Assembly (NCBI GenBank): GCA_964478005.1
Contig: CAYZGJ010000001.1
Location: 1 to 44,617, forward strand
Length of the DNA: 44,617 bases
Reading direction: 5' to 3'
Source: an uncultured Candidatus Peribacteria bacterium
Lineage (GTDB): Bacteria > Patescibacteriota > Gracilibacteria > Peribacterales > Peribacteraceae
Position numbers and translations under genes: made by a program. Below the pieces are notes generated by a model. It was not told where the DNA came from, made no database searches, and worked only from the letters and a program-made list of their open reading frames with translations. This document shows, in pieces, positions 11,300-43,094 of this stretch. Within the stretch, counting starts at the first letter, position 1; every line of letters begins with the position of its first letter.

Positions 11300-11374
11300 G
11301 GCGCCATCGTCTAGCGGTTAGGACGCCAGGTTCTCATCCTGGTAACCGGGGTTCGATTCCCCGTGGCGCTGCCA
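11300..11374 (+). tRNA. tRNA-Glu (anticodon CUC), CCA encoded
   Basis: Manual cloverleaf: acceptor GGCGCCA/TGGCGCT, D arm GTCT-AGCGGTTA-GGAC, anticodon arm CCAGG-TTCTCAT-CCTGG, variable TAAC, T arm CGGGG-TTCGATT-CCCCG, discriminator G, CCA. Confidence 0.92.
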
Positions 11375-32375: not shown

Positions 32376-35300
32376 TCATGCCGCTTGTGCCGGTTGCACA
32401 TCGGATGGATCGATCGTTGCAGTGCGTTCAGGGCGAGAGACGGGCGTGGGAGGTGGACGGGGCAGAATCGCATCAGCGCGCTGCAATAATCCTTCCACCG
32501 AAAGCAGGTGTGTATCTGCTCCGATGGCAGCAAGAGTATCTGCCTGTCCGGACTTCGCCTGCTGCAATGCAATCTCATTGGGATCGTCGTCCAGGAGGGA
32601 GATACGCAACGCAGTGATGGCTGATGCCACATCTTCCGGTGTCAATGATGTGCTGCTTTGCGCTTTTGTGGAAAGATCGCGCAAAACCGTCAGTGCCCTC
32701 TCGGCGAACGCGCCGCGCGCGATAGCACGCAAACTTTCTTCACTCTGCCCCCTGCCCGGCATCCAAGACCAGCTGCGTCTGTCCGTCCAGTTGGAATAGT
32801 TCGCCGAAAGAATTTTTGCCTCGCAAGCCGCCAGTTCATGCTGCACTGCAAGGAGCATCTTCCACGGCATGTGCTCCCGGAACAGGGAAGGATGCGCCGC
32901 CAGCGATGCGATATCCATCACCTGCAGTGCCTCGACTTGCGCATAAGCCTCCTCAACCTCCGCTTCCTTTTCTTCCCACGATCGTTCATCGGACCGGCTG
33001 TTGCCCGCAGGATCACGCAGGAAAGCGCGCTGCTCCAGCGTGCGAATGCGAGCGTACAACTCCGCCTTACGTACGGTCTCGGGATCAACCGGCACAAATG
33101 TCTTCTGCGTCTTCTCCTTGAGGTAGGTGACCGCTGCCGTAGCAAAGTATCCCATTTCGTCGCGCAGGCGCTGCGCGATGCGCTCCTCCCGCTTCTCCGG
33201 AGGCAAGCCGCGATCGCTTTCCGACAGATCGTCTTCTGCAAGGGGCGGGAGGGACCAGAGTGCTGCCTGGCGGAAGTATCCGGCGTATCCTTGCATGCGC
33301 GCAGTGGCATCAGCTTTGTCAAATGTTTCAGACATGTCCGATGCCACGAGATTCAATTGCGGACCGGCAAGCATCTTTGCAGGATCGGCAGCGAGCGCCT
33401 GCCCCCATGTCTTCTCCTGTTGAATGTGGTGCAGAATGGCCCCCGGTGTTTCCTGTGACAGCTCTTGTTCATTTCTCAATAATCGCTTTGTCCCCGCTTC
33501 GATGTTCCGACGAATCGGTTGCGCTACAAGATTATTGGTAGCCAACATGGCAACACCAATCGGCATTCCAGGTGAGTACAGAAGTGCTGTTCCTGCTGCA
33601 TTGATTTCCAAACTTGCCGTGTTGCCCCAATTTAACTCTCGTTCCAATTGCGCTTTCTTTGCGGGGTCCGTCTCTGCATCTATCGCATCCAACAAACGTG
33701 GGCGCTCGTTTTGAAAATAATCGTATGCCTCATATCCGACTGCAGCCGTATCAAGTACCACCGTTCCCTTCACCACTTTCCCTAGCCGCGCTAGGCGGGC
33801 GGGAACGGGGATGTGAGAGATGATTCGGGAAGATATCCCCATAGCTGCGCTTCGTCCTCGTTCATACTGCCGTAAAAAGCCTCTCAGTGGGGGCGCGAGG
33901 AATGAACCGCGAATACTCACGAAGCGCTGAATATTGATCGCGTGTCTCAAAGCCGGTTGTCGTGCGATAAGGAGGGCTTTATTCCTCTCAGCTATGAGAC
34001 CATATTGCCTGAATTCAGCTGCCAATTGCATCCAAAGCGCTTTGTTATGCGGTGATGCCGTACACCTGTTGAGTAGTTCCTTGAGGCTGCTCCGCACCTG
34101 CGAAGACAAGGCCGTATTATCAAGAGCCGATTCGAATTTCTTATAACAATCCGCCGCATGCCCGATGGCCGAAACCGAAGGGCCGCCGATCATCCTTTGC
34201 GACGCATTGATCACCCGATTCACAGGGTCCGTATTGAGCGCGCGAATATGCCAGGACTTCAATCCATCTTGTACATTGGCATACGTAATAAACGGACGTG
34301 TAACGAACCGGCTTGCTTCTCCAACAGCTATTGTTGCGCCGAGGGCGGGCAAGGGCCATTCCTTTACAATGGATGACATAATCTCCATTGTTTCCACTCC
34401 CCCTCGCACAAAGGTATATCCTACCGTTTTGCCAATCATGACCAGCGAGGGCACCGCCTTTTCAAACATTTCCGGATAACTCATACTGACCCCGAGCTTC
34501 TGCCATTCCTCCTGCAACGTTTCGCCGCTGGCACCGGCCAGCTTCTTCGCAATTCTCTGGATGATGCGATATTTTCTATCGCTAAACCAACGTTCATCTG
34601 CATCCGCGACAAATTTCAGTACTTCCATCTGCATGAGAATGAGTCCGGTGGGATTCCCCTGTTTCATCATGCGCTTATAAAAATACAGGCGCAGTGCTTG
34701 ATGCGGAGGCATGCGGTCCAAGAGATAGGTGCGCACGCGCTCGGCATCGGTGTCCCCTTCATTGCTGGGGAAGATGTCATGGAAACAAGGGAGAATGAAA
34801 AGATGCGTGTCGCCGTTCTGAATCTCTTCAAAGACCTTTGCAATGATTTGATCCTCCAATGTTTCCGCAGGGTTGCGCCTTGCGTACTCAATGCGATCAG
34901 CCACGGTGGAGTTGACTGAGCTTGCCGCGGCAATCGCAAAAAGCTTGCCGCTATCGACCGCTGTTTCTTCCTCCGTCAAACCGAATTCCGCGGCATGCTC
35001 CCGCACGAACTGCTGCAATTCCCGTTGCAAGTCTTGGTTGCCGCGAGAAATAGTCTGCAAATCAAGATGCCGCAAAGCCTGCACGATATCCTGACCCTGT
35101 TCAATTTGTTGCGTGAATCCGTATAACACCTCCGTCACTGATTCCATCACGGCATACCGCAGATATTCCTTCAGTGTCATCGCATCCATTTGCATCTGCG
35201 CCTGTTCGGGTGAGATGCCATCTCTCTCCACGAGCTGTGCCAGTACTTCCGGCTCCTTCTCTGCGCAGAGCGACAACAGGAGTTCTGCTCCCTGCATTCT

Positions 35301-36416
35301 ATTGGAACGATCGGACTCAGGTATGATAAGGATTTCTTCCGCCGACACATTTTGCTCCAGTTTCTCAAAGATTGCACTCATCGGCTTATCTCCATTATTG
35401 AGGAGCAACCCTCCCATCTGATAGATCTTGGCACCGGAAGAAATGCCCCAGTCCCGATCATCCATATTTGCCAAGATAGCTCGCGCCAAAAAAATATCCG
35501 TGGGGTTTTCCACAATTTCAGCGAATTCACTCACGGCTTCAGATCCCGAAACAGGGACATCGGCTCCTTGTGAAGTAACAGGCCGTTCCGATAACCGAAC
35601 AGCGTCCGCAGCTTGGCGCAATTGTGCCTCTATCTCATTTTTTCTCTGCATCAACTTTCCGAATTCTGCGGCAGTCAATCCTTCCATCTGCGTAAGTTTG
35701 CGCTGCACTTCTTCAAATTCAACCTGCAATTTTTTCATCGCCATACCCTTCAGATATTTACCGGCGGCATTGATGCCAAAATACCCTCCTACCGTCAACA
35801 CGCCGGCGAGCGCCCCCCACTTGATCCATCCCCATCCTTTTCCAACTATCGCTCCGGCTTGATGCGCTCTTTGCTTCAATCCTTTCCCAATCCATCGTGC
35901 CAACAGCAATCCGCCTACGACCACCGCTCCCGTTCCTGCGTACATCGCCGCGCGCTTCTGTTCCTCCGGCGTCCAGGTGTGCGGCTTGTACCACTTCTTT
36001 TCGGCAGCGGAAGGAACCTGTGGCGGTGACGGCTGCCGCTCGGCAGGGGCTACCGCGGGTGCGGGAGCGCTCTCCGGTTGCGCGGGCGTTGCACTGACGG
36101 GAGGCAGTGATTCCAAATGCGTGCGCATAGCTTCCGTCACGCCGCGCAATTGCTCCAAGTCCGCCGCGACCAGATCCCTGTACGTGCGCCTCTCCAAGTC
36201 CTGAAGATTTGCCTGTATCAACGCGCGTTCCTGCGCATTCAATCCATCAAGATTACGTTTCAATGCGTCCAGAATCTGCGGCTTTTCGGCATCGGAAGTC
36301 GCTTGTATCTCGGTAAGTAGTTGTTGCAATTGTTCCTCCGTCCGATGGGGCGTGCGCACGGTCTCGACGATGCGCTCTGCAAGAGCGGGACCGGAGGAAG
36401 GTGTGGGTGTGGACAT
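32376..36416 (-). CDS. 1346-aa orphan protein with N-terminal TM hairpin and long helical/coiled-coil body
   Basis: Uninterrupted 4 kb ORF in the AT-richer patch. Pro-rich linker, then hydrophobic helices at about aa 156-176 and 195-217. No known motif recognised. Confidence 0.8.
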   Translation of the reverse strand: MSTPTPSSGPALAERIVETVRTPHRTEEQLQQLLTEIQATSDAEKPQILDALKRNLDGLNAQERALIQANLQDLERRTYRDLVAADLEQLRGVTEAMRTHLESLPPVSATPAQPESAPAPAVAPAERQPSPPQVPSAAEKKWYKPHTWTPEEQKRAAMYAGTGAVVVGGLLLARWIGKGLKQRAHQAGAIVGKGWGWIKWGALAGVLTVGGYFGINAAGKYLKGMAMKKLQVEFEEVQRKLTQMEGLTAAEFGKLMQRKNEIEAQLRQAADAVRLSERPVTSQGADVPVSGSEAVSEFAEIVENPTDIFLARAILANMDDRDWGISSGAKIYQMGGLLLNNGDKPMSAIFEKLEQNVSAEEILIIPESDRSNRMQGAELLLSLCAEKEPEVLAQLVERDGISPEQAQMQMDAMTLKEYLRYAVMESVTEVLYGFTQQIEQGQDIVQALRHLDLQTISRGNQDLQRELQQFVREHAAEFGLTEEETAVDSGKLFAIAAASSVNSTVADRIEYARRNPAETLEDQIIAKVFEEIQNGDTHLFILPCFHDIFPSNEGDTDAERVRTYLLDRMPPHQALRLYFYKRMMKQGNPTGLILMQMEVLKFVADADERWFSDRKYRIIQRIAKKLAGASGETLQEEWQKLGVSMSYPEMFEKAVPSLVMIGKTVGYTFVRGGVETMEIMSSIVKEWPLPALGATIAVGEASRFVTRPFITYANVQDGLKSWHIRALNTDPVNRVINASQRMIGGPSVSAIGHAADCYKKFESALDNTALSSQVRSSLKELLNRCTASPHNKALWMQLAAEFRQYGLIAERNKALLIARQPALRHAINIQRFVSIRGSFLAPPLRGFLRQYERGRSAAMGISSRIISHIPVPARLARLGKVVKGTVVLDTAAVGYEAYDYFQNERPRLLDAIDAETDPAKKAQLERELNWGNTASLEINAAGTALLYSPGMPIGVAMLATNNLVAQPIRRNIEAGTKRLLRNEQELSQETPGAILHHIQQEKTWGQALAADPAKMLAGPQLNLVASDMSETFDKADATARMQGYAGYFRQAALWSLPPLAEDDLSESDRGLPPEKREERIAQRLRDEMGYFATAAVTYLKEKTQKTFVPVDPETVRKAELYARIRTLEQRAFLRDPAGNSRSDERSWEEKEAEVEEAYAQVEALQVMDIASLAAHPSLFREHMPWKMLLAVQHELAACEAKILSANYSNWTDRRSWSWMPGRGQSEESLRAIARGAFAERALTVLRDLSTKAQSSTSLTPEDVASAITALRISLLDDDPNEIALQQAKSGQADTLAAIGADTHLLSVEGLLQRADAILPRPPPTPVSRPERTATIDPSDVQPAQAA

Positions 36417-36482: not shown

Positions 36483-36701
36483 TCAGCCACGAAATGGTCG
36501 TCCCATGGCCCCGGCTACAGCCCCACGCACACCCGCAACAAGGGTCCTACCTAGGGCACCACCTGCATATCCGGCAGCAGATCCACTAAATACAACAGCA
36601 TCACCCAAGGTAGCAGCCACCCCACGTCTCGTGCCGGCGCATACATGTTCGACAGCACTTAGTGCAACGGGGCCCGTTTCAGGATGTCGTCGGACCGGCA
36701 T
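36483..36701 (-). CDS. Gly/Ala-rich small protein (72 aa), hypothetical
   Basis: Its start overlaps the stop of the 297-aa ORF as TAATG. GVAATLGDAVVFSGSAAGYAGGALGRTLVAGVRGAVAGAMG is glycine-zipper-like. Confidence 0.45.
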   Translation of the reverse strand: MPVRRHPETGPVALSAVEHVCAGTRRGVAATLGDAVVFSGSAAGYAGGALGRTLVAGVRGAVAGAMGRPFRG

Positions 36702-37594
36702 TATGCAGTTGTGGAAGCGGGAGGGGCATCTGCGGCCGGTGCAGCACCGGGAGTCTCGGGAGCGGCGGCGGGTGCGGGGGCAGGAGCAGCAGGTGCTTCA
36801 GGAGTGGATGCCGGTGGAGCGGATGCAGGAGCAGGAGTCGATTGCTGTTGCATATTCTCTTTCACTTTTTGCGCACTCTCCAATATATCCTTTGTAGTAA
36901 GTTTTTGCTTGTTCGAGGGGCTTTGCTCGACCACACTGATCAGAAAGGATGCAAGCGGAATCTGTTGCGCAGCCACTTTCCCGCTATTGACACTACTGAG
37001 AATTTTGACAACTTCTCGCATGTTCTCGTCATCCTTGGACCCCGCCTCAAATGTTCTCTTGTTTGCACTGAGAGCAGCGAAAAGCTCTTTCATCCCCGGC
37101 CCCTTCGGCAGCAGCCAATCGGGCACGGTGATTCCAAAACTCATTAAGGATGGTAAGAGCGGCCCCAACATTTTTGCCAGCAAATTTTGCAACTTATCCG
37201 CCGTCTCCATGAGCATATTCGTAATCTTTGTCACCGCACCCATGCCTTTTTCAATATTGTCTTGCGCAAAGAGCACCGTATTATCTTGGAATCTTTGATA
37301 AATACTGTCGATACTGAGTTGTGTAGCTTCTACAGCATCCCTCAATGCATCCGGCACTTCATCCAGTCGCCATTTGGCTACTTCAGTCTTGAGACCATCC
37401 AGAGCTTCTCCACTCATGTTCTTCACTTGCTCGCGCGCGTCTCTCAACGCAGTCAATGCGCTGTTCACGATATCTTCCGACACTTCCGCACCGGTCTCTT
37501 GCACTACTTTCATTCTTTCTCGTATTGCGCTCAGTGTATCGACTGGGCGCTCAGGTGGATTGGTGTCGGGTGCGGAACCGGGTGCGTTTGTCAT
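36701..37594 (-). CDS. 297-aa helical protein with Pro/Ala-rich C-terminal tail, hypothetical
   Basis: Long ORF in the same low-GC block, with no TM helix and no motif. The tail reads STPAPASAPPASTPEAPAAPAPAPAAAPETPGAAPAADAPPA. Confidence 0.6.
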   Translation of the reverse strand: MTNAPGSAPDTNPPERPVDTLSAIRERMKVVQETGAEVSEDIVNSALTALRDAREQVKNMSGEALDGLKTEVAKWRLDEVPDALRDAVEATQLSIDSIYQRFQDNTVLFAQDNIEKGMGAVTKITNMLMETADKLQNLLAKMLGPLLPSLMSFGITVPDWLLPKGPGMKELFAALSANKRTFEAGSKDDENMREVVKILSSVNSGKVAAQQIPLASFLISVVEQSPSNKQKLTTKDILESAQKVKENMQQQSTPAPASAPPASTPEAPAAPAPAPAAAPETPGAAPAADAPPASTTA

Positions 37595-37857: not shown

Positions 37858-37884
37858 GAATGCGTTTGGTATGTATTTGCCACT

Positions 37885-37913
37885 ATTCTACTCCAAAACA
37901 TCAAAATCCGCAA
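37885..37913 (-). promoter_or_regulatory. candidate sigma70-like promoter for the low-GC cluster
   Basis: The minus strand reads TTGCGG (37913-37908), 17-nt spacer, TAGAAT (37890-37885). Confidence 0.4.
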
Positions 37914-37976
37914 CCACCGCCCCACGGGCCGCTCGGATGTGCTACCATGCCCCCGTTCCTTCCCCCCTCGCTCTCT

Positions 37977-38333
37977 ATGCACATCGAGCACTACGAGAAA
38001 GGCATCCGGTATACGGACAAGGAATTGCTGCTGCTGGCCCGGAAGCTGGGCAAAATGGCGACGTACTGCAGCCGGCTGAAGGACGAGTCGTCCGTCATCC
38101 GCGTGGATGCCCAGCGGCGGCCGACCAAGAAGGCACGTGACGAGGTGCACGTGACGATCACCGTGGAACTGCCCCGGAAGACGCTGCGGAGCGAGTCGCG
38201 CAAGGCAACGGTCGTCGAAGCGATTGACCGCTGCGTGGAGAAGATGGAGCCGCAACTGCTGAAGTACAAGGACGCCTGGACCACCAAGGGCAAGCGCATC
38301 CGGCAAGCCCGCTCTCCCATCCCCGCCCGCTGA
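37977..38333 (+). CDS. hpf: ribosome hibernation promoting factor / RaiA family (short form)
   Basis: MHIEHYEKGIRYTDKELLLLARKL...VHVTITVELPRKTLRSESRKATVVEAIDRCVEKMEPQLLKYKD. Alternative ATG at 37947. Confidence 0.75.
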   Translation: MHIEHYEKGIRYTDKELLLLARKLGKMATYCSRLKDESSVIRVDAQRRPTKKARDEVHVTITVELPRKTLRSESRKATVVEAIDRCVEKMEPQLLKYKDAWTTKGKRIRQARSPIPAR

Positions 38334-38337
38334 TCCC

Positions 38338-39879
38338 ATGCGCCGATTGCTTTCCGTCACCGGCCCGGTTCTCTGCTGCCTCGCCCTCGCTGCCTGGGCG
38401 CCGGGGGCGGCCGCGCAGGAAGACGTCCTGCCTGAGGCGGGCACGGGCGCGGCCGCGGCGCGGGCCGTCATCACCGGACCCCGGGACGTGGCGGCGGGGC
38501 GCACCATCGTGCTCGACGGGTCGCTCTCCACGGCCGAGGGGGAGATCACCGGCTACCGGTGGTTCCTGGAGGGGCAGCAGCGTCCCATCAGCGAGACGGT
38601 GGAGGCGGTCTTCACGCCGGAGAATGCGGGGACGCTCGTCTTCCGCCTCACGGTGACGGCGCAACTGCCCGACGGCACGGAGGTGACGGGCACCGCGACG
38701 CATAGTGTGACGGTCTACAGCCGCAAGATCGTGCTGGTGGCCGATGCGTCGGTGTCCTCCGACCGACTCGAGCTCCACCGGCAAATGGCGGCGGACGCGG
38801 ACATCTTCCTCAGCATCCTCCAGCCGCCTCCGTCTCCCGCGCCCATCGGGGCCGAAGAGGCACTCATCACGCTGCTGTCCGAGCAGAGCGCGGCCTTCGT
38901 GGGGGCGGACGCCATCGTCCTGTGGACGGACGGCATCACGGGGCTGCAGGCGCTCACCAGCGTGCTCCAGGATGACGGGCGGCTGCTGGCCGGCGTGCGC
39001 AACCAGAGCATCATCCTCCTCTCGGAACGGGGGCTGGGCACCCTGGGACGCATTGCGCGCGGGACGTTCTCCGCGCTCGAGCCCCGCCAGATTCTGCTCA
39101 CGCGCCGCGAAGCGTTGGGGCCGCTCTTCGCCGCGCCCACCATCGATGCCTTCCTCGTCTCCCTCGCGGAGCGTGACATTGAGGTGCTGCGCATCGACGA
39201 GAGCACCGCCGGCCTGCGTCCGTGGAACCTGCTCTCGGGCCTCGTGAACCTGATGCTCACCAAGGGGGTGCCGAGCCAGACGGTCATCCTGCTCCTGGTG
39301 CTCCCCGTCATCGCCATGATCCTCGCCTTCCTCAAGCAGGTCGTGGGCATCACCACGTTCGGCCTCTACACGCCGTCGATCATCGCGCTGAGTTTCCTCG
39401 CGCTGGGGTGGCAGCTGGGCGTGCTCTTCCTCTGCTTCATCGTGGCGACGGGCTACCTGACGCGCGCGCTCATGCGCACCTGGCGCCTGCTCTACATTCC
39501 GAAGGTCGCCATCATCCTGACGGTCGTGAGCGTCACGCTGCTGCTGCTGACGGGCGTCAGCGCGTACTTCGACATCACCTTCTCGCGGGAGACGATCTTC
39601 ATCCTGCTCATCATGAGCACGCTGGCGGAGAGTTTCCTGAACCTGAAGACGGAGCAGGGCTGGACCTCGGCGATCATCGGCATCGGCGAGACGATTCTGG
39701 CGGCGCTGCTGTGCGTGTTCCTCGTGCAGTGGACGGTGTTCCAGTCGCTCATTCTGGCCTACCCGGAGCTGCTGCTGCTCACCGTCGTCGTCGACGTCAT
39801 TCTGGGCCGATGGACGGGGCTGCGGCTGGTCGAGTACTTCCGTTTCCGCGAAGTGTTCCTCCACCTGAAAGAGGAATGA
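38338..39879 (+). CDS. secreted-domain plus 7TM membrane protein (7TM_transglut-type C-terminus)
   Basis: Signal peptide. Ig/PKD-like stretch (ITGPRDVAAGRTIVLDGSLS...GYRWFLEG...TVTVY). C-terminal seven TM helices ending ILGRWTGLRLVEYFRFREV, typical of 7TM partners of RimK-like ATP-grasp ligases. Confidence 0.75.
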   Translation: MRRLLSVTGPVLCCLALAAWAPGAAAQEDVLPEAGTGAAAARAVITGPRDVAAGRTIVLDGSLSTAEGEITGYRWFLEGQQRPISETVEAVFTPENAGTLVFRLTVTAQLPDGTEVTGTATHSVTVYSRKIVLVADASVSSDRLELHRQMAADADIFLSILQPPPSPAPIGAEEALITLLSEQSAAFVGADAIVLWTDGITGLQALTSVLQDDGRLLAGVRNQSIILLSERGLGTLGRIARGTFSALEPRQILLTRREALGPLFAAPTIDAFLVSLAERDIEVLRIDESTAGLRPWNLLSGLVNLMLTKGVPSQTVILLLVLPVIAMILAFLKQVVGITTFGLYTPSIIALSFLALGWQLGVLFLCFIVATGYLTRALMRTWRLLYIPKVAIILTVVSVTLLLLTGVSAYFDITFSRETIFILLIMSTLAESFLNLKTEQGWTSAIIGIGETILAALLCVFLVQWTVFQSLILAYPELLLLTVVVDVILGRWTGLRLVEYFRFREVFLHLKEE

Positions 39880-42263
39880 TCCTGCCCTTCTTTTCCAGTC
39901 GCGGCGTCCTGGGGCTCAACGCGCGTAACCTGCTGTACATCAAGCCCTTCAATCCCCGCAAGGCGATCGCCTTCGCGGATGACAAGCTGAAGACGAAGGC
40001 CTATCTCGCGGCGCGGGGCATTCCCGTCGCCCGGATCTACGCGCGCATCGAATCGCGCCGGCAGCTGCGGTCCTTTGACTTCTCCACCCTGCCCGACCAG
40101 TGCGTGCTGAAGCCGAAGTACGGTTTCGGCGGCGGGGGCATCAAGGTGCTCAAGGGGCGCAAAGACGGCGTCTTTCTGGAGCAGGGGAAGATCCCGGTCA
40201 CGTACCGCGACCTCACCGAACACATCGAGGACATTCTGGACGGCAAGTACTCCATCAACGGCATGCACGATACGGCCTTCTTCGAGAAGATCCTGGAGGC
40301 CGATCCGGCGTTCGCGCCGCTGCGTCCGGCGGGCCTTCCCGACATCCGCATCGTCGTCTTCAATCTGGTGCCGGTGATGGCGATGCTGCGGATCCCCACG
40401 GCGGCCAGCGGCGGCAAGGCCAACGTGCACCTGGGCGGGATCGGCATCGGGATCGACCTGGCGACAGGGCGGACGACCTTCGCGACGCAGTACAACAAGC
40501 GCATCCATGTCCTGCCGCACGGCGGGTCTCCCTCAGGCATCCAGATTCCGCACTGGGAAGAGTTGCTGCGCATTGCTTCGCGTATCCAGGAGCTCACGAA
40601 CATCGGCTACCTCGCAGTGGATCTGACGCTCGACCGCGAACAGGGCCCCGTGCTGCTGGAGGTCAATGCGCGCGCGGGACTGATGGTGCAGGTGGCCAAC
40701 CTCGCGCCGCTGCGCGCGCGGTTGGAGCGCGTGAGCGGCGTGCGCGTGCAGAGCGTGGAGAAGGGCGTGCGTCTCGCGCAGGATCTGTTTGGGGCCAAGC
40801 GGCCGGCACGCGCGACGGACACGGCGCCCGATCGACCGGTCCTGGGCACGCGGGAACTGCTGAGCATCAGCGGGACCGGAGCGACCGTCGATGTCCCCGC
40901 CCTCCTGTCCCCCGACCACGAACGGACCGTCTTCGCGCCGGATCTGCTGGCCGAACTGATCCGGGCCGGCGCGGCGGAGGTCGAGAGTGAGACGGACCGC
41001 ACCTTCCGCGTGAAGTTCACGCTGGGTGGGCGGCGCATGCAGACCATCGTGCAGGAGGGGGAAGTGGAGCCGCCGTCCGTCCGCGCCCTGGTGGGCCGGC
41101 GCGACCTGAAAGGGTTTCTCATCGATCCGGACAAGGCCGCCGCGTTTACCATCCTGCGCCCCGCCGTCCGTGAGGATCTGCGCGCCATCGACAAGACCCT
41201 TGCGCAGATCGATCACGACCTGGTGCTGCTCCCCCATGTGAAGCCGTCCAACCTGCTGCAGGAGCGTGAGAAACTGCTGGTGGATCCCGCGTACAATCCG
41301 TTCTTCACCTACGATCCCCCCCGCCTGCCGCTCGATGACATCGAGGCGCGTCTGCTGAACCTGTCCATTGAAGATTCGCCCATGGGCACGCTCTTCCAGA
41401 AGAAGCGGCACGAGCTCCTGCTGCGCATCGCGCTCATCCGCGCCCGGGGCTCCGCGCGCGCGTTCACGGAAGCTTCCGTGGCGCTCTTCGGGCGGCCCAC
41501 GACCACGCTGCTGACCGCTGCAGCCGCCGATCTGCGCCGGCATGCTTCCGCGTCCGCAAAGACCGATCCCAATGATACCCTGACCGCAGAGGAGGCTGCC
41601 GCTTTGTTCCGCGAGGCGCTGGACCGCTACGCGCTGGACAACTGGAAGGTGTCCGTGCGGGAGGAGACGGTCGCCCGCGTGACGGTCGGCGGCAGCTCCG
41701 TGGTGCTGCGGGGGAGCGCCACCTTCGCCAAGGCTTCCCTGCGCGGCCTCATCGCGCACGAGATCGAGACGCATGTGCTCACGGCGGAGAACGGCGCGCA
41801 CCAGCCCTTCGAGCTCTTCCGCCGCGGCTGCGCCCACTATCTGGATACCCAGGAAGGCCTGGCCATTTTCAATCAGAACCGCTTCCTGCCTGCGGGACAC
41901 GAGAAGCGCGTGGGGCCCGCCCGCAACATGCTCGGCGCGGCGTACGCCCTGGAGCACTCGTTCGTGGAGACGCGCCGGTCGCTGGAGGAAGACCTGGGCT
42001 ACGAGCCGTCCAAGGCGCTGAGCAAGGCGATGGAACTCAAACGGGGACTCGGCGACACAGCGGAACCCGGCGGCTTCACCAAGGGGATCGTCTACGAGCG
42101 GGGACTGCGCGCCATCGAGCAGTACCTGGCGCAGGGCGGAGACATCCTGCGACTGTACATGGGCAAGATCGCGCTGGAGGACCTGCCGCTCCTGGAACAG
42201 GTACCCGATCTGAAGCCGCCGGTGCTGCTGCCGGAGTTCCTCCGGATGACCAAATCGCCATGA
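39876..42263 (+). CDS. fusion protein: alpha-L-glutamate-ligase-like ATP-grasp enzyme plus DUF1704 (QEGLA-motif, MATCAP-like) metallopeptidase domain
   Basis: The start overlaps the upstream stop (ATGA). N-terminus GLNARNLLYIKPFNPRKAIAFADDKLKTKAYLAARGIPV...CVLKPKYGFGGGGIKVL...LAVDLTLD...LLEVNARAG. C-terminus HEIETH (41757-41774) and TQEGLA (41850-41864). Confidence 0.8.
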   Translation: MILPFFSSRGVLGLNARNLLYIKPFNPRKAIAFADDKLKTKAYLAARGIPVARIYARIESRRQLRSFDFSTLPDQCVLKPKYGFGGGGIKVLKGRKDGVFLEQGKIPVTYRDLTEHIEDILDGKYSINGMHDTAFFEKILEADPAFAPLRPAGLPDIRIVVFNLVPVMAMLRIPTAASGGKANVHLGGIGIGIDLATGRTTFATQYNKRIHVLPHGGSPSGIQIPHWEELLRIASRIQELTNIGYLAVDLTLDREQGPVLLEVNARAGLMVQVANLAPLRARLERVSGVRVQSVEKGVRLAQDLFGAKRPARATDTAPDRPVLGTRELLSISGTGATVDVPALLSPDHERTVFAPDLLAELIRAGAAEVESETDRTFRVKFTLGGRRMQTIVQEGEVEPPSVRALVGRRDLKGFLIDPDKAAAFTILRPAVREDLRAIDKTLAQIDHDLVLLPHVKPSNLLQEREKLLVDPAYNPFFTYDPPRLPLDDIEARLLNLSIEDSPMGTLFQKKRHELLLRIALIRARGSARAFTEASVALFGRPTTTLLTAAAADLRRHASASAKTDPNDTLTAEEAAALFREALDRYALDNWKVSVREETVARVTVGGSSVVLRGSATFAKASLRGLIAHEIETHVLTAENGAHQPFELFRRGCAHYLDTQEGLAIFNQNRFLPAGHEKRVGPARNMLGAAYALEHSFVETRRSLEEDLGYEPSKALSKAMELKRGLGDTAEPGGFTKGIVYERGLRAIEQYLAQGGDILRLYMGKIALEDLPLLEQVPDLKPPVLLPEFLRMTKSP

Positions 42264-42297
42264 CCCATGGCCAAAACGAAAGCACCCAATCCCAATG

Positions 42298-42337
42298 ACC
42301 CATGACCAAATCTCTTCGGAGTGCATTGGTCATGGGT
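42298..42337. terminator. bidirectional hairpin between convergent genes
   Basis: 12-bp stem ACCCATGACCAA / TTGGTCATGGGT. The 16-nt loop contains CTC-TTCG-GAG. Lies between the ATP-grasp fusion stop and the rplY stop. Confidence 0.5.
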
Positions 42338-42343
42338 GCTTGG

Positions 42344-42997
42344 TCATTCTTTCTTGTCTTCCTCTTTCTTCTCTCCCTCTCCCGCCGCACCGTCGGCAGC
42401 GGCTGCCTCGCCTTCCGCGGCGGCAACCGGCTGCGGTTCAGGCTCCTCCTCGCGCGGCTCCTGGGCGATGACGAGTACTTCGTCGGGGTCATTGAGAATC
42501 GTGACGCCCTCGGGCGCCTTCAGGTCGGCGACGGTCAGGGTGCCGTCGAGCTCCTCCAGCTTGGTCATGTCCAGCTCCAGGTCGTGGGGCAGCTTGGCGG
42601 GCAGCGCCCGGACCGTCACGGTGTCGAGCGGCGTGACGAGGATCGCGCCCAGGTTCTTCACGGCGGGCGCTTCGCCCTCGTGGCGGATCTGCACCTCGGC
42701 CTCCACTTCCTTCTTCATGTCCACGGCGTAGAAGTCCACGTGCGTCAGGCGGTCGGTCACCGGATCGAGCTCCAGCGCGTGGAAGAGGACGGGCAGCGTC
42801 CTGCCCTCCAGGTCGATCTCCACCAGCGTGCTCTCGCCCGCCTTCCGGTAGGCGCGCAGGAGGTCCATCTCCCCGACGGCGATCAGCGTGTTGTCCGTGT
42901 TGCCGTAGATGACGCCCGGGACTTTTCCTTCCCGGCGCAGGATGCGGGCGGGGGTCTGGGTGGTGCGGGCGGCGACGGCGAGGGTGACGGAGTCCAT
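42344..42997 (-). CDS. rplY: 50S ribosomal protein L25 / general stress protein Ctc, with acidic tail
   Basis: ARILRREGKVPGVIYG...LVEIDLEG...VLFHALELDPVTDRLTHVDF. Start at ATG 42997. Candidate promoter TTGACC-17-TACCCT lies upstream. Confidence 0.88.
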   Translation of the reverse strand: MDSVTLAVAARTTQTPARILRREGKVPGVIYGNTDNTLIAVGEMDLLRAYRKAGESTLVEIDLEGRTLPVLFHALELDPVTDRLTHVDFYAVDMKKEVEAEVQIRHEGEAPAVKNLGAILVTPLDTVTVRALPAKLPHDLELDMTKLEELDGTLTVADLKAPEGVTILNDPDEVLVIAQEPREEEPEPQPVAAAEGEAAAADGAAGEGEKKEEDKKE

Positions 42998-43066
42998 GGG
43001 GGATGGGCGAAAACGGGCTCGTAGGGTACGGGATGGCGTTCGGACGGTCAATGGGAATGTGTGGCG

Positions 43067-43094
43067 GTAGAGGCGCAAAATCTTGCGTCTGTAC
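43067..43094. repeat. REP-like palindrome GTAGAGGCGCAAAATCTTGCGTCTGTAC
   Basis: Degenerate copy of 15886-15913. An additional half-site GCGTCTCTAC lies at 43107-43116. Confidence 0.8.

Follow-up and report, generated by a model that had tools for sequence, protein, structure and literature searches.

We describe a two-gene locus in a stretch of 44,617 nucleotides (nt) from an uncultured Candidatus Peribacteria bacterium (assembly GCA_964478005.1, contig CAYZGJ010000001.1; the whole stretch is called the window below). Gene 1 (38338-39879) encodes a 513-residue membrane protein with a signal peptide, a PKD domain, an alpha/beta ecto-domain, a seven-transmembrane (7TM) module of the 7TM_transglut family and a cytoplasmic tail. 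Gene 2 (39876-42263) encodes a 795-residue enzyme of three domains: an ATP-grasp ligase, a probable retropepsin relic and a MATCAP-type peptidase. Both genes, and all of their features given below, lie on the + strand. The ATG of gene 2 at 39876 runs into the TGA stop of gene 1, an ATGA overlap that had been pointed out in the original prediction, made from the letters of this DNA alone, and which is consistent with translational coupling. The promoter/terminator scan gave no terminator-like site between the two genes, and the Rfam, tRNA and promoter/terminator scans added nothing at the two-gene locus. The domain matches in genes 1 and 2 are far beyond chance, and the families foreseen for them (a RimK-related or ATPgrasp_ST ligase, DUF1704, now MATCAP, and 7TM_transglut) were all recovered by profile and fold searches.

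The signal peptide of gene 1 (residues 1-26, MRRLLSVTGPVLCCLALAAWAPGAAA; 38338-38415) has its hydrophobic core at residues 4-22 and, in the AlphaFold2 (AF2) model, a helix at residues 9-18 followed by disorder, with a putative cleavage site after residue 26. That model (mean predicted confidence, pLDDT, 83) then shows a PKD sandwich, an alpha/beta domain, seven transmembrane helices and a C-terminal helix. The PKD and alpha/beta domains face outward. The first, a PKD/Ig-like beta-sandwich at residues 40-127 (38455-38718), gives only weak Pfam matches (K319L-like_PKD and PKD_4, both under the gathering score, residues 43-126), but by Foldseek it matches the PKD domain of ColG (E 3e-5, TM score 0.83). 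The second, at residues 130-290 (38725-39207; pLDDT about 90), has five strands alternating with helices; it gave no Pfam match at E<=5 and no convincing PDB fold match with Foldseek, and it sits where the membrane protein RloB has an inactive transglutaminase domain. The seven helices span residues 313-490 (39274-39807), by hydropathy, by the AF2 helices and by a match to 7TM_transglut (PF14402; residues 314-506, E 2e-28, 100 bits against a gathering score, GA, of 25). The NCBIfam RloB model NF052267 aligns with gene 1 over model positions 311-504 only, which is the 7TM part, and scores 60.7 bits against a cut-off of 900; gene 1 is therefore not a full-length RloB, as its outer region is PKD plus alpha/beta in place of the N-terminal inactive transglutaminase. 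The layout that had been read from the letters (signal peptide, Ig/PKD-like region, 7TM module and the end GRWTGLRLVEYFRFREVFLHLKEE) is that of the profiles and the model, apart from the alpha/beta domain, which it did not include, and the suggested kinship with 'inactive-transglutaminase-type' membrane proteins holds for the 7TM module while failing for the outer region, which has no such transglutaminase.

The ligase domain of gene 2 (residues 8-307; 39897-40796) covers the whole of the TIGR02291 'alpha-L-glutamate ligase-like' model (E 7e-79), with a score of 265.1 bits that lies under the curated cut-off of 314.2, and matches PF14397 ATPgrasp_ST over residues 17-287 (E 2e-60); TIGR00768, the RimK branch, reaches just 43 bits. 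A RimK-related ATP-grasp domain over the first 300 residues or so, as originally proposed, is thus upheld. The N-terminal motif is GVLGLNARNLLYIKPFNPR, and the further motifs are Lys79 in LKPKYGFGGGG, D156-I-R158, N183-V-H185-L-G-G and the metal-binding L-E262-V-N264; across 42 homologues no change is seen at K79, D156/R158, N183/H185, D249 or E262/N264. A PDB sequence search with this domain gave chance-level matches only (RimK at E 0.1-0.7), and the nearest folds by Foldseek against the PDB are ArgX/LysX, RimK and cyanophycin synthetase. Like members of the RloC family, it is encoded directly after a 7TM_transglut gene. From its motifs we predict a catalytically intact ligase of the RloC/RimK type.

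At the other end of gene 2 lies a predicted metallocarboxypeptidase domain of the MATCAP/DUF1704 (QEGLA) family (residues 437-793; 41184-42254). It matches PF08014, the Pfam family renamed from DUF1704 to MATCAP, in agreement with the original prediction, over residues 474-778 (E 1e-44; 153.4 bits against a GA of 27). It also matches TIGR02421 'QEGLA' over residues 440-793 (E 5e-50), where 170.9 bits against a cut-off of 338.65 mark it as a relative and not an equivalog. Human MATCAP (7z5g) is matched by PDB profile (E 2e-12), and is the top Foldseek match of the predicted gene 2 model (E 1e-10, probability 1.0, TM score 0.65 over the target). The hallmarks by which the domain had first been recognised align with the human enzyme. 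HEIETH, at exactly the place given for it (41757-41774), corresponds to HEIGTH of MATCAP, with H628 and H633 as metal-binding residues and E629 as the catalytic glutamate; the inactive cryo-EM construct 7z6s reads HQIGTH here. TQEGLA corresponds to TEEGLA, with E660 as the putative third metal ligand; its motif and its end had been read correctly, but it starts at 41847 and not at 41850, which is the Q. A third motif pair in the alignment is KRGLGDTAEPGGFTKGIVY in the window and KRGQTDTSLPGCFSKDQVY in MATCAP, and the family domain starts near residue 437, about 190 residues upstream of HEIETH. In MATCAP itself E281 is the catalytic residue (E281A is a dead mutant) and the EEG motif the likely third metal ligand, and the MATCAP/TMCP carboxypeptidases remove C-terminal Tyr and Glu (-EEY/-EE) and shorten polyglutamate chains (PMC10499314). 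H628, E629, H633 and E660 are invariant in the 42 homologues, so that this domain also appears catalytically intact, as a peptidase of the metallocarboxypeptidase type. Both halves of gene 2 therefore fall in the families predicted for them, with their catalytic residues in place.

What had been taken for a linker of about 200 residues between these two halves is instead a low-confidence stretch of about 45 (residues 275-318) and then a folded, beta-rich domain (residues 320-425; 40833-41150). In the AF2 model of gene 2 (mean pLDDT 82) it stands at about residues 320-425, between the ATP-grasp fold (about 25-275) and the helical MATCAP domain (433-790). We regard it as a degenerate retropepsin domain of the RimB/RloA type, an assignment that is well supported by transitive and positional homology. 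Pfam gave no match to it at E<=5; in a PDB profile search RloA ranks second and third (9g59 and 9g58) at weak E-values of 0.13 and 0.44, and hhalign of the domain alignment against one Legionella RloA returned a probability of 9%. Since this direct match is weak, the assignment rests on architecture and on a bridging locus of Saccharibacteria (L085), in which the system is split in three: a 7TM protein (226 residues), a ligase with the middle domain (460 residues) and a MATCAP protein (379 residues). A hidden Markov model (HMM) of the middle domain, built from Peregrinibacteria only, matches the L085 domain in the same position (E 4e-12). That domain in turn scores 40.6 bits against PF05618 (RimB-like, 'ATP-dependent zinc protease'; GA 27) and carries the canonical AKIDTGAYRTS. 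The alignment of the two is collinear through the C-terminal family motif (IIGRRDLKKFLVDP in L085, LVGRRDLKGFLIDP in the window), and the window domain keeps its terminal motif LVGRRDLKGFLIDPDK. Its catalytic D-T-G, however, is replaced by S345-P346-D347 (40908-40916), and across the 42 MATCAP-fused homologues these columns read S/A, P and D/E. L085 has both peptidases.

Both proteins have their best homologues in metagenome-assembled genomes (MAGs) of Candidatus Peregrinibacteria/Peribacteria, at 58-79% identity over their full length and in hundreds of 90%-identity clusters. There are 120 gene 1 homologues at 58-79% identity, and the gene 2 homologues at 58-74% identity all carry PF14397 together with PF08014. 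The fused architecture is hence already in the databases, in hundreds of proteins, with no function attached; labels include 'DUF1704 domain-containing protein', 'tyrosine/phenylalanine carboxypeptidase domain-containing protein' and 'alpha-L-glutamate ligase-like protein/uncharacterized protein (TIGR02421 family)'. When residues 301-795 were searched against 1.84 billion cluster representatives, 2278 relatives were found; among the top 150, fused forms of about 780-840 residues and stand-alone forms of about 350-375 residues are both common. A scan of one genome per GTDB species, with a subset of 8 MATCAP sequences as query, returned 80 loci, which were analysed with purpose-built HMMs for each domain. 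In 60 of the 64 loci with enough upstream DNA, the enzyme gene has the 7TM gene directly upstream and on its own strand, usually within 100 nt, and the outer domain of gene 1 ('ecto' HMM) is found in nearly all loci. The ligase motifs are kept in 72 loci, HExxxH in 79 of 81 and T[QE]EG[LI]A in 80 of 81. MAGs with the labels Peregrinibacteria, Gracilibacteria, Magasanikbacteria, Parcubacteria and Altimarinota have the 7TM protein and the enzyme as a pair, at 35-60% identity. The module of two genes is conserved throughout Patescibacteria, with gene 1 as the obligate 7TM partner of the enzyme.

The tail of gene 1 (RWTGLRLVEYFRFREVFLHLKEE; 39808-39876) ends with Glu512-Glu513 (39871-39876), and we place it in the cytoplasm because of the hydropathy and of the five Lys/Arg residues within it, following the positive-inside rule. 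It holds a family-wide motif, G-x-[WFY]-x-G-L-R..E..RF, and the conserved helix of this region is GRWTGLRLVEYFRF. Every one of the 120 close homologues closes with Glu-Glu, as -EE in 89 and as -EEE in 31, compared with only 4 of 294 other proteins retrieved. Of the 67 7TM copies at the scanned loci, 61 finish with -EE and 3 with -QE, the remaining 3 being the short proteins of L059, L083 and L085; the residues before this end vary (HLQEE, HTEE, KNIEE, HIGEEE, AEEEE, GTSEE). Classic RloB proteins have no such end and close with ...VLAKARS (Legionella) or ...TPGKDK (Aeromonas), and the short 7TM partners of ligase::retropepsin proteins that have no MATCAP domain end in ...SGKK, ...PKKR or ...SRKK. 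The acidic end thus co-varies with the long 7TM protein and the MATCAP-fused architecture. Read-through of a stop codon under genetic code 25, which could have joined short 7TM genes to the enzyme gene, was considered and rejected, as the stops at L083 and L059 are TAA; the 7TM genes of L059, L083 and L085 all close at true TAA or TAG stops.

ATP-grasp::RimB-like proteins of about 440-456 residues, labelled 'RimK/LysX family protein' or 'ATP-dependent zinc protease', form a very large family in Patescibacteria. They share with the window the 7TM module and the order of ligase and retropepsin, but they keep the active-type D-[TS]-G (115 of the 120 best matches), have no MATCAP domain and are accompanied by a second and third ATP-grasp gene or an M17 peptidase; their 7TM proteins are short (about 220 residues), with a basic end and no outer domain. 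They are direct architectural precursors or sisters of gene 2. In the MATCAP-fused proteins, on the other hand, D-T-G is lost and the 7TM partners end in -EE: one enzyme lineage apparently lost the function of its retropepsin and gained MATCAP, a replacement of one peptidase by another that the present module documents.

The closest studied system is rloABC of Pseudomonas aeruginosa, which encodes a secreted retropepsin (RloA), a 7TM protein whose transglutaminase domain is inactive (RloB) and an ATP-grasp ligase (RloC) (PMC12239564); the linkage of 7TM proteins with RimK-like ligases, which the original prediction had named as established, is that of these rloBC genes. The window ligase belongs to the same TIGR02291 subfamily, with 37% identity to the RloC proteins of Legionella (plasmid, L087) and Aeromonas (L088). 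The 7TM_transglut modules share the tail motif G-x-Y/W-x-G-[LY]-[RK]..E..RF; the 7TM gene precedes and overlaps the ligase gene in both, and a peptidase is part of both systems. The systems differ in the outer region (PKD plus alpha/beta instead of an inactive transglutaminase), in the end of the 7TM protein (-EE instead of ...KARS or ...GKDK) and in the peptidase. In the window no RloA-type retropepsin gene is adjacent, PF05618 is not among the families listed (best 25 of 34) for the 35 open reading frames (ORFs), and in place of a separate secreted retropepsin there is an apparently dead one fused after the ligase, with MATCAP fused at the C-terminus. In P. aeruginosa, a triple rloA mutant is relieved of its hypo-osmotic lethality, and of other defects, when rloB or rloC is deleted, and RloA, which is secreted and has a positively charged substrate channel, cleaves RimB substrates and poly-Glu tails in vitro (PMC12239564). 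This suggests that the ligase/7TM pair and the peptidase act antagonistically on one process.

From these comparisons we tentatively favour, without great confidence, a membrane-anchored module that writes and erases C-terminal amino acids; it would represent a variant, in Patescibacteria, of the RloB-RloC and RimK-RimB systems. The ligase would dock onto the 7TM protein at its conserved cytoplasmic tail; a Halobacterium protein in which a 7TM module and a ligase are fused (described below) locates the ligase at just this tail. Using ATP, it would add alpha-linked residues to a C-terminal Glu, most likely glutamate, as RimK does on the -EE end of S6. Its nearest structural relatives all act on protein C-terminal Glu (RimK on S6, LysX/ArgX on LysW). 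The preferred acceptor would most likely be the -EE end of the 7TM protein itself, as substrate or primer. The MATCAP domain, having taken over trimming from the now-dead retropepsin domain in this lineage, would remove the added residues singly, as MATCAP/TMCP do with tubulin at its -EE(Y) ends and polyglutamate tails. Tail length would then follow from how the two activities balance; the outward-facing domains would presumably control this balance, and the tail, for its part, might tune the activity of the 7TM protein. The original prediction had gone from the two enzyme families to an add-and-remove cycle or a machine for synthesis and trimming, an interpretation with which the comparative evidence is consistent and which it narrows.

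The main rival has the ATP-grasp domain polymerising a free anionic peptide (for example poly-alpha-L-glutamate, as RimK does in vitro), which the 7TM protein would export. MATCAP would then limit its length or recycle unexported product, and the -EE end would be a primer mimic or a docking motif. The secretion of RloA, with the rescue by rloB or rloC deletion, suggests an RloBC-dependent product outside the cytoplasm; the 7TM/ligase core also exists without -EE and is covalently fused in Halobacterium, the versions in Parcubacteria have one or two further ATP-grasp ligases plus an M17 peptidase, as a small peptide-assembly line might, and the ligase has cyanophycin synthetase as one of its fold neighbours. 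We nevertheless hold it to be rather unlikely. Both domains of the peptidase type lie in the cytoplasm, joined to the synthase, where they would destroy the product before export, and a secreted retropepsin was not seen among the window families listed. The 7TM module has no detectable similarity to known transporters in the fold search beyond a weak TMEM175 match, and export leaves the co-variation of the -EE end with MATCAP unexplained. We prefer a cycle at the tail of the 7TM protein to export on account of the cytoplasmic site of the peptidase-type domains, the start/stop overlap, the C-terminal Glu substrates of the ligase's relatives and the appearance of -EE together with MATCAP.

Several points nevertheless weigh against this preferred cycle. 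The identity of the added residue and of the substrate, and even the carboxypeptidase activity, are predictions; the cytoplasmic site of the gene 1 tail comes from a topology prediction, and the retropepsin identity of the middle domain, reached indirectly by transitive homology, is probable rather than certain. The short 7TM proteins of L059, L083 and L085, which have no outer domains, carry MATCAP but no -EE. The Parcubacteria core of 7TM protein and ligase::retropepsin occurs without an acidic tail, and the Halobacterium fusion leaves the 7TM module no free C-terminus, so that modification of the tail can be neither ancestral nor universal as a role of 7TM protein and ligase. The -EE end might instead serve for docking or as a pseudo-substrate.

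RimK and RimB, the best-characterised relatives of the first two gene 2 domains, also raise the possibility that the enzyme glutamylates and trims S6 or another acidic-ended ribosomal protein, with the 7TM protein localising or regulating it. In that system an alpha-L-glutamate ligase of the ATP-grasp type, among the closest folds to the window ligase, is likewise paired with a trimming peptidase-type domain: the cytoplasmic retropepsin RimB binds RimK and trims the added Glu from S6, which ends in Glu-Glu. It differs from the window in having neither a membrane partner nor MATCAP, in a ligase of another subfamily and in a retropepsin that is active and separate. The flanking genes would fit a ribosomal role: gene 1 is preceded, with 4 nt between them, by an S30AE/HPF hibernation factor gene (37860-38333, + strand), and gene 2 is faced from the other strand by an L25/Ctc gene (42344-43078, - strand) whose C-terminal extension is rich in Glu/Lys (...GEGEKKEEDKKE); a RimK gene and a QEGLA gene are also co-induced at low salinity in Photobacterium. 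But the synteny with HPF, L25 and a glycosyltransferase is limited to the closest Peribacteria, and is gone in distant loci (about 35% identity) that keep the 7TM protein and enzyme. We therefore treat it as lineage inertia, and a functional tie to these three genes was rejected. The ligase, moreover, is of the RloC branch (TIGR02291) and not RimK, and the window HPF ends in ...SPIPAR, with no acidic tail. This minor alternative seems to us very improbable.

The other minor alternative is that the ligase adds amino acids to a surface polysaccharide or a lipid-linked precursor, which the 7TM protein would handle. Its best Pfam family, PF14397, is named for 'sugar-transfer associated ATP-grasp', and a family-2 glycosyltransferase gene lies 850 nt downstream of gene 2 on the opposite strand, syntenic in close relatives. 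That synteny too is gone in distant loci; the RloC/alpha-L-glutamate-ligase-like family gives a stronger and more specific match than PF14397, and the two peptidase-type domains fused to the ligase argue for a peptide substrate. We give this alternative marginally less credence still.

The tubulin cycle of eukaryotes offers a further parallel for the tail cycle that we favour. There, Tyr or Glu is put onto an acidic -EE tail by an ATP-grasp ligase (TTL/TTLL) and taken off again by a MATCAP/TMCP enzyme (KIAA0895L/KIAA0895); the C-terminal domain of gene 2 is, by profile and fold, a true MATCAP homologue. In the window, however, ligase and peptidase are one polypeptide, the ligase is RimK/RloC-type and not TTL-type (on the relative L085 the TTL Pfam model does no better than chance, at E 0.12), there are no microtubules and the candidate substrate is a membrane protein. 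It is conceivable, though speculative and to our minds rather doubtful, that the -EE end of the 7TM protein is reversibly lengthened and shortened by its own writer and eraser in a 'tubulin-code-like' manner, gating a sensor or channel, and that eukaryotic MATCAP descends from such a ligase-coupled prokaryotic trimmer.

MATCAP relatives are tied to a different ligase in proteobacteria. There the QEGLA motif protein (about 620-660 residues) has an N-formylglutamate amidohydrolase (FGase) domain fused or adjacent, as in Vibrio sp. HDW18 (L090, 5116-7107) and Shinella (L091, 3977-7719), and in Shinella a glutathione-synthetase-like ATP-grasp gene follows. These QEGLA domains are 25-34% identical to the window MATCAP domain and, as in the window, are linked to an ATP-grasp peptide ligase; in contrast to the window, that ligase is glutathione-synthetase-like (GshB-like) and there is no 7TM partner. 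In Photobacterium, low salinity induces the QEGLA gene and the adjacent ligase gene by a factor of 27 to 38 (PMC10308900). The RloC-like fusion and the GshB-like neighbour together indicate that bacterial MATCAP relatives have been partnered with ATP-grasp ligases in two independent ways. For the stand-alone MATCAP genes of Woesearchaeota, Nanoarchaeota, Methanosarcinales and one Clostridia, no ATP-grasp neighbour was found at the loci checked; the genes beside them have no relation to the module (Trm1 twice, RsmB, a GTPase and others). In two unrelated archaeal MAGs (L067 11066-12193, Methanosarcinales; L084 8747-9934, Nanobdellota) the stand-alone MATCAP gene adjoins one for Trm1, the N2,N2-dimethylguanosine tRNA methyltransferase.

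Many bacterial and archaeal MATCAP relatives are uncharacterised, and we know of no function for the bacterial ones; the MATCAP/TMCP enzymes were themselves reportedly recognised as erasers of the tubulin tail code in 2022-2023. In the window a MATCAP domain is joined to a RimK/RloC-type ligase and paired with a 7TM protein whose -EE end resembles the substrates of both enzyme families, which links bacterial biology to the origin of MATCAP and makes for a substrate hypothesis that is concrete and cheap to test biochemically. The strong conservation (58-79%) in the small genomes of Peregrinibacteria, together with the spread across Patescibacteria, suggests an important envelope or signalling role, in hosts that have few recognisable regulatory systems. 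We found no description of the MATCAP-fused variant, the retropepsin relic or the partner's -EE tail in the searchable literature, outside which lies the 2009 comparative genomics of these ATP-grasp systems.

Several variants of the module were seen along the way. The Halobacterium fusion is an unannotated 589-residue ORF on plasmid CP007061 of Halobacterium sp. DL1 (L089, 5149-6915), in which a 7TM_transglut-like module is joined to an RloC-type ATP-grasp N-terminus; it adjoins transposase genes. Parcubacteria-type loci (L092-L097) have a short 7TM gene, an ATP-grasp::RimB-like gene, a second ATP-grasp gene (about 500 residues) and then an M17 aminopeptidase or a third, GshB-like ATP-grasp gene, always with YebC and RuvC genes upstream; they look like a multi-ligase system for peptide assembly. 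A small PF05635 gene ('23S rRNA intervening sequence protein', bAvd-like) stands between the 7TM and enzyme genes in one relative, and another has it immediately downstream of its enzyme gene (L003/L004, 5615-6001; L005, 8448-8873), which indicates a mobile small gene within the module. Five contigs labelled 'uncultured Gammaproteobacteria' MAG (L068, L071, L076, L077, L081) carry the Patescibacteria-type module, with enzymes 46-60% identical to copies labelled Magasanikbacteria, Parcubacteria and Patescibacteria. These labels are probably due to mis-binning or mislabelling, or else horizontal transfer has occurred; as these loci cluster with those of Patescibacteria, we do not claim the fused form outside that group.

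Around the module, a DUF3048 gene lies between the fused enzyme and L25 genes in close relatives (L001-L005), in the place of which the window has only about 80 nt (42263-42344); it was either lost from the window or never there. Two large ORFs on the - strand (32376-36416, 1346 residues; 36701-37594, 297 residues) have no Pfam match and lie in a stretch with a G+C content of 0.52-0.54, against about 0.65 elsewhere. A 1350-residue gene at the matching relative position in L005 makes this look like a conserved gene specific to the candidate phyla radiation (CPR) rather than an insertion. The sole RNA gene detected in the window is a tRNA-Glu (anticodon CTC) at 11300-11374 on the + strand.

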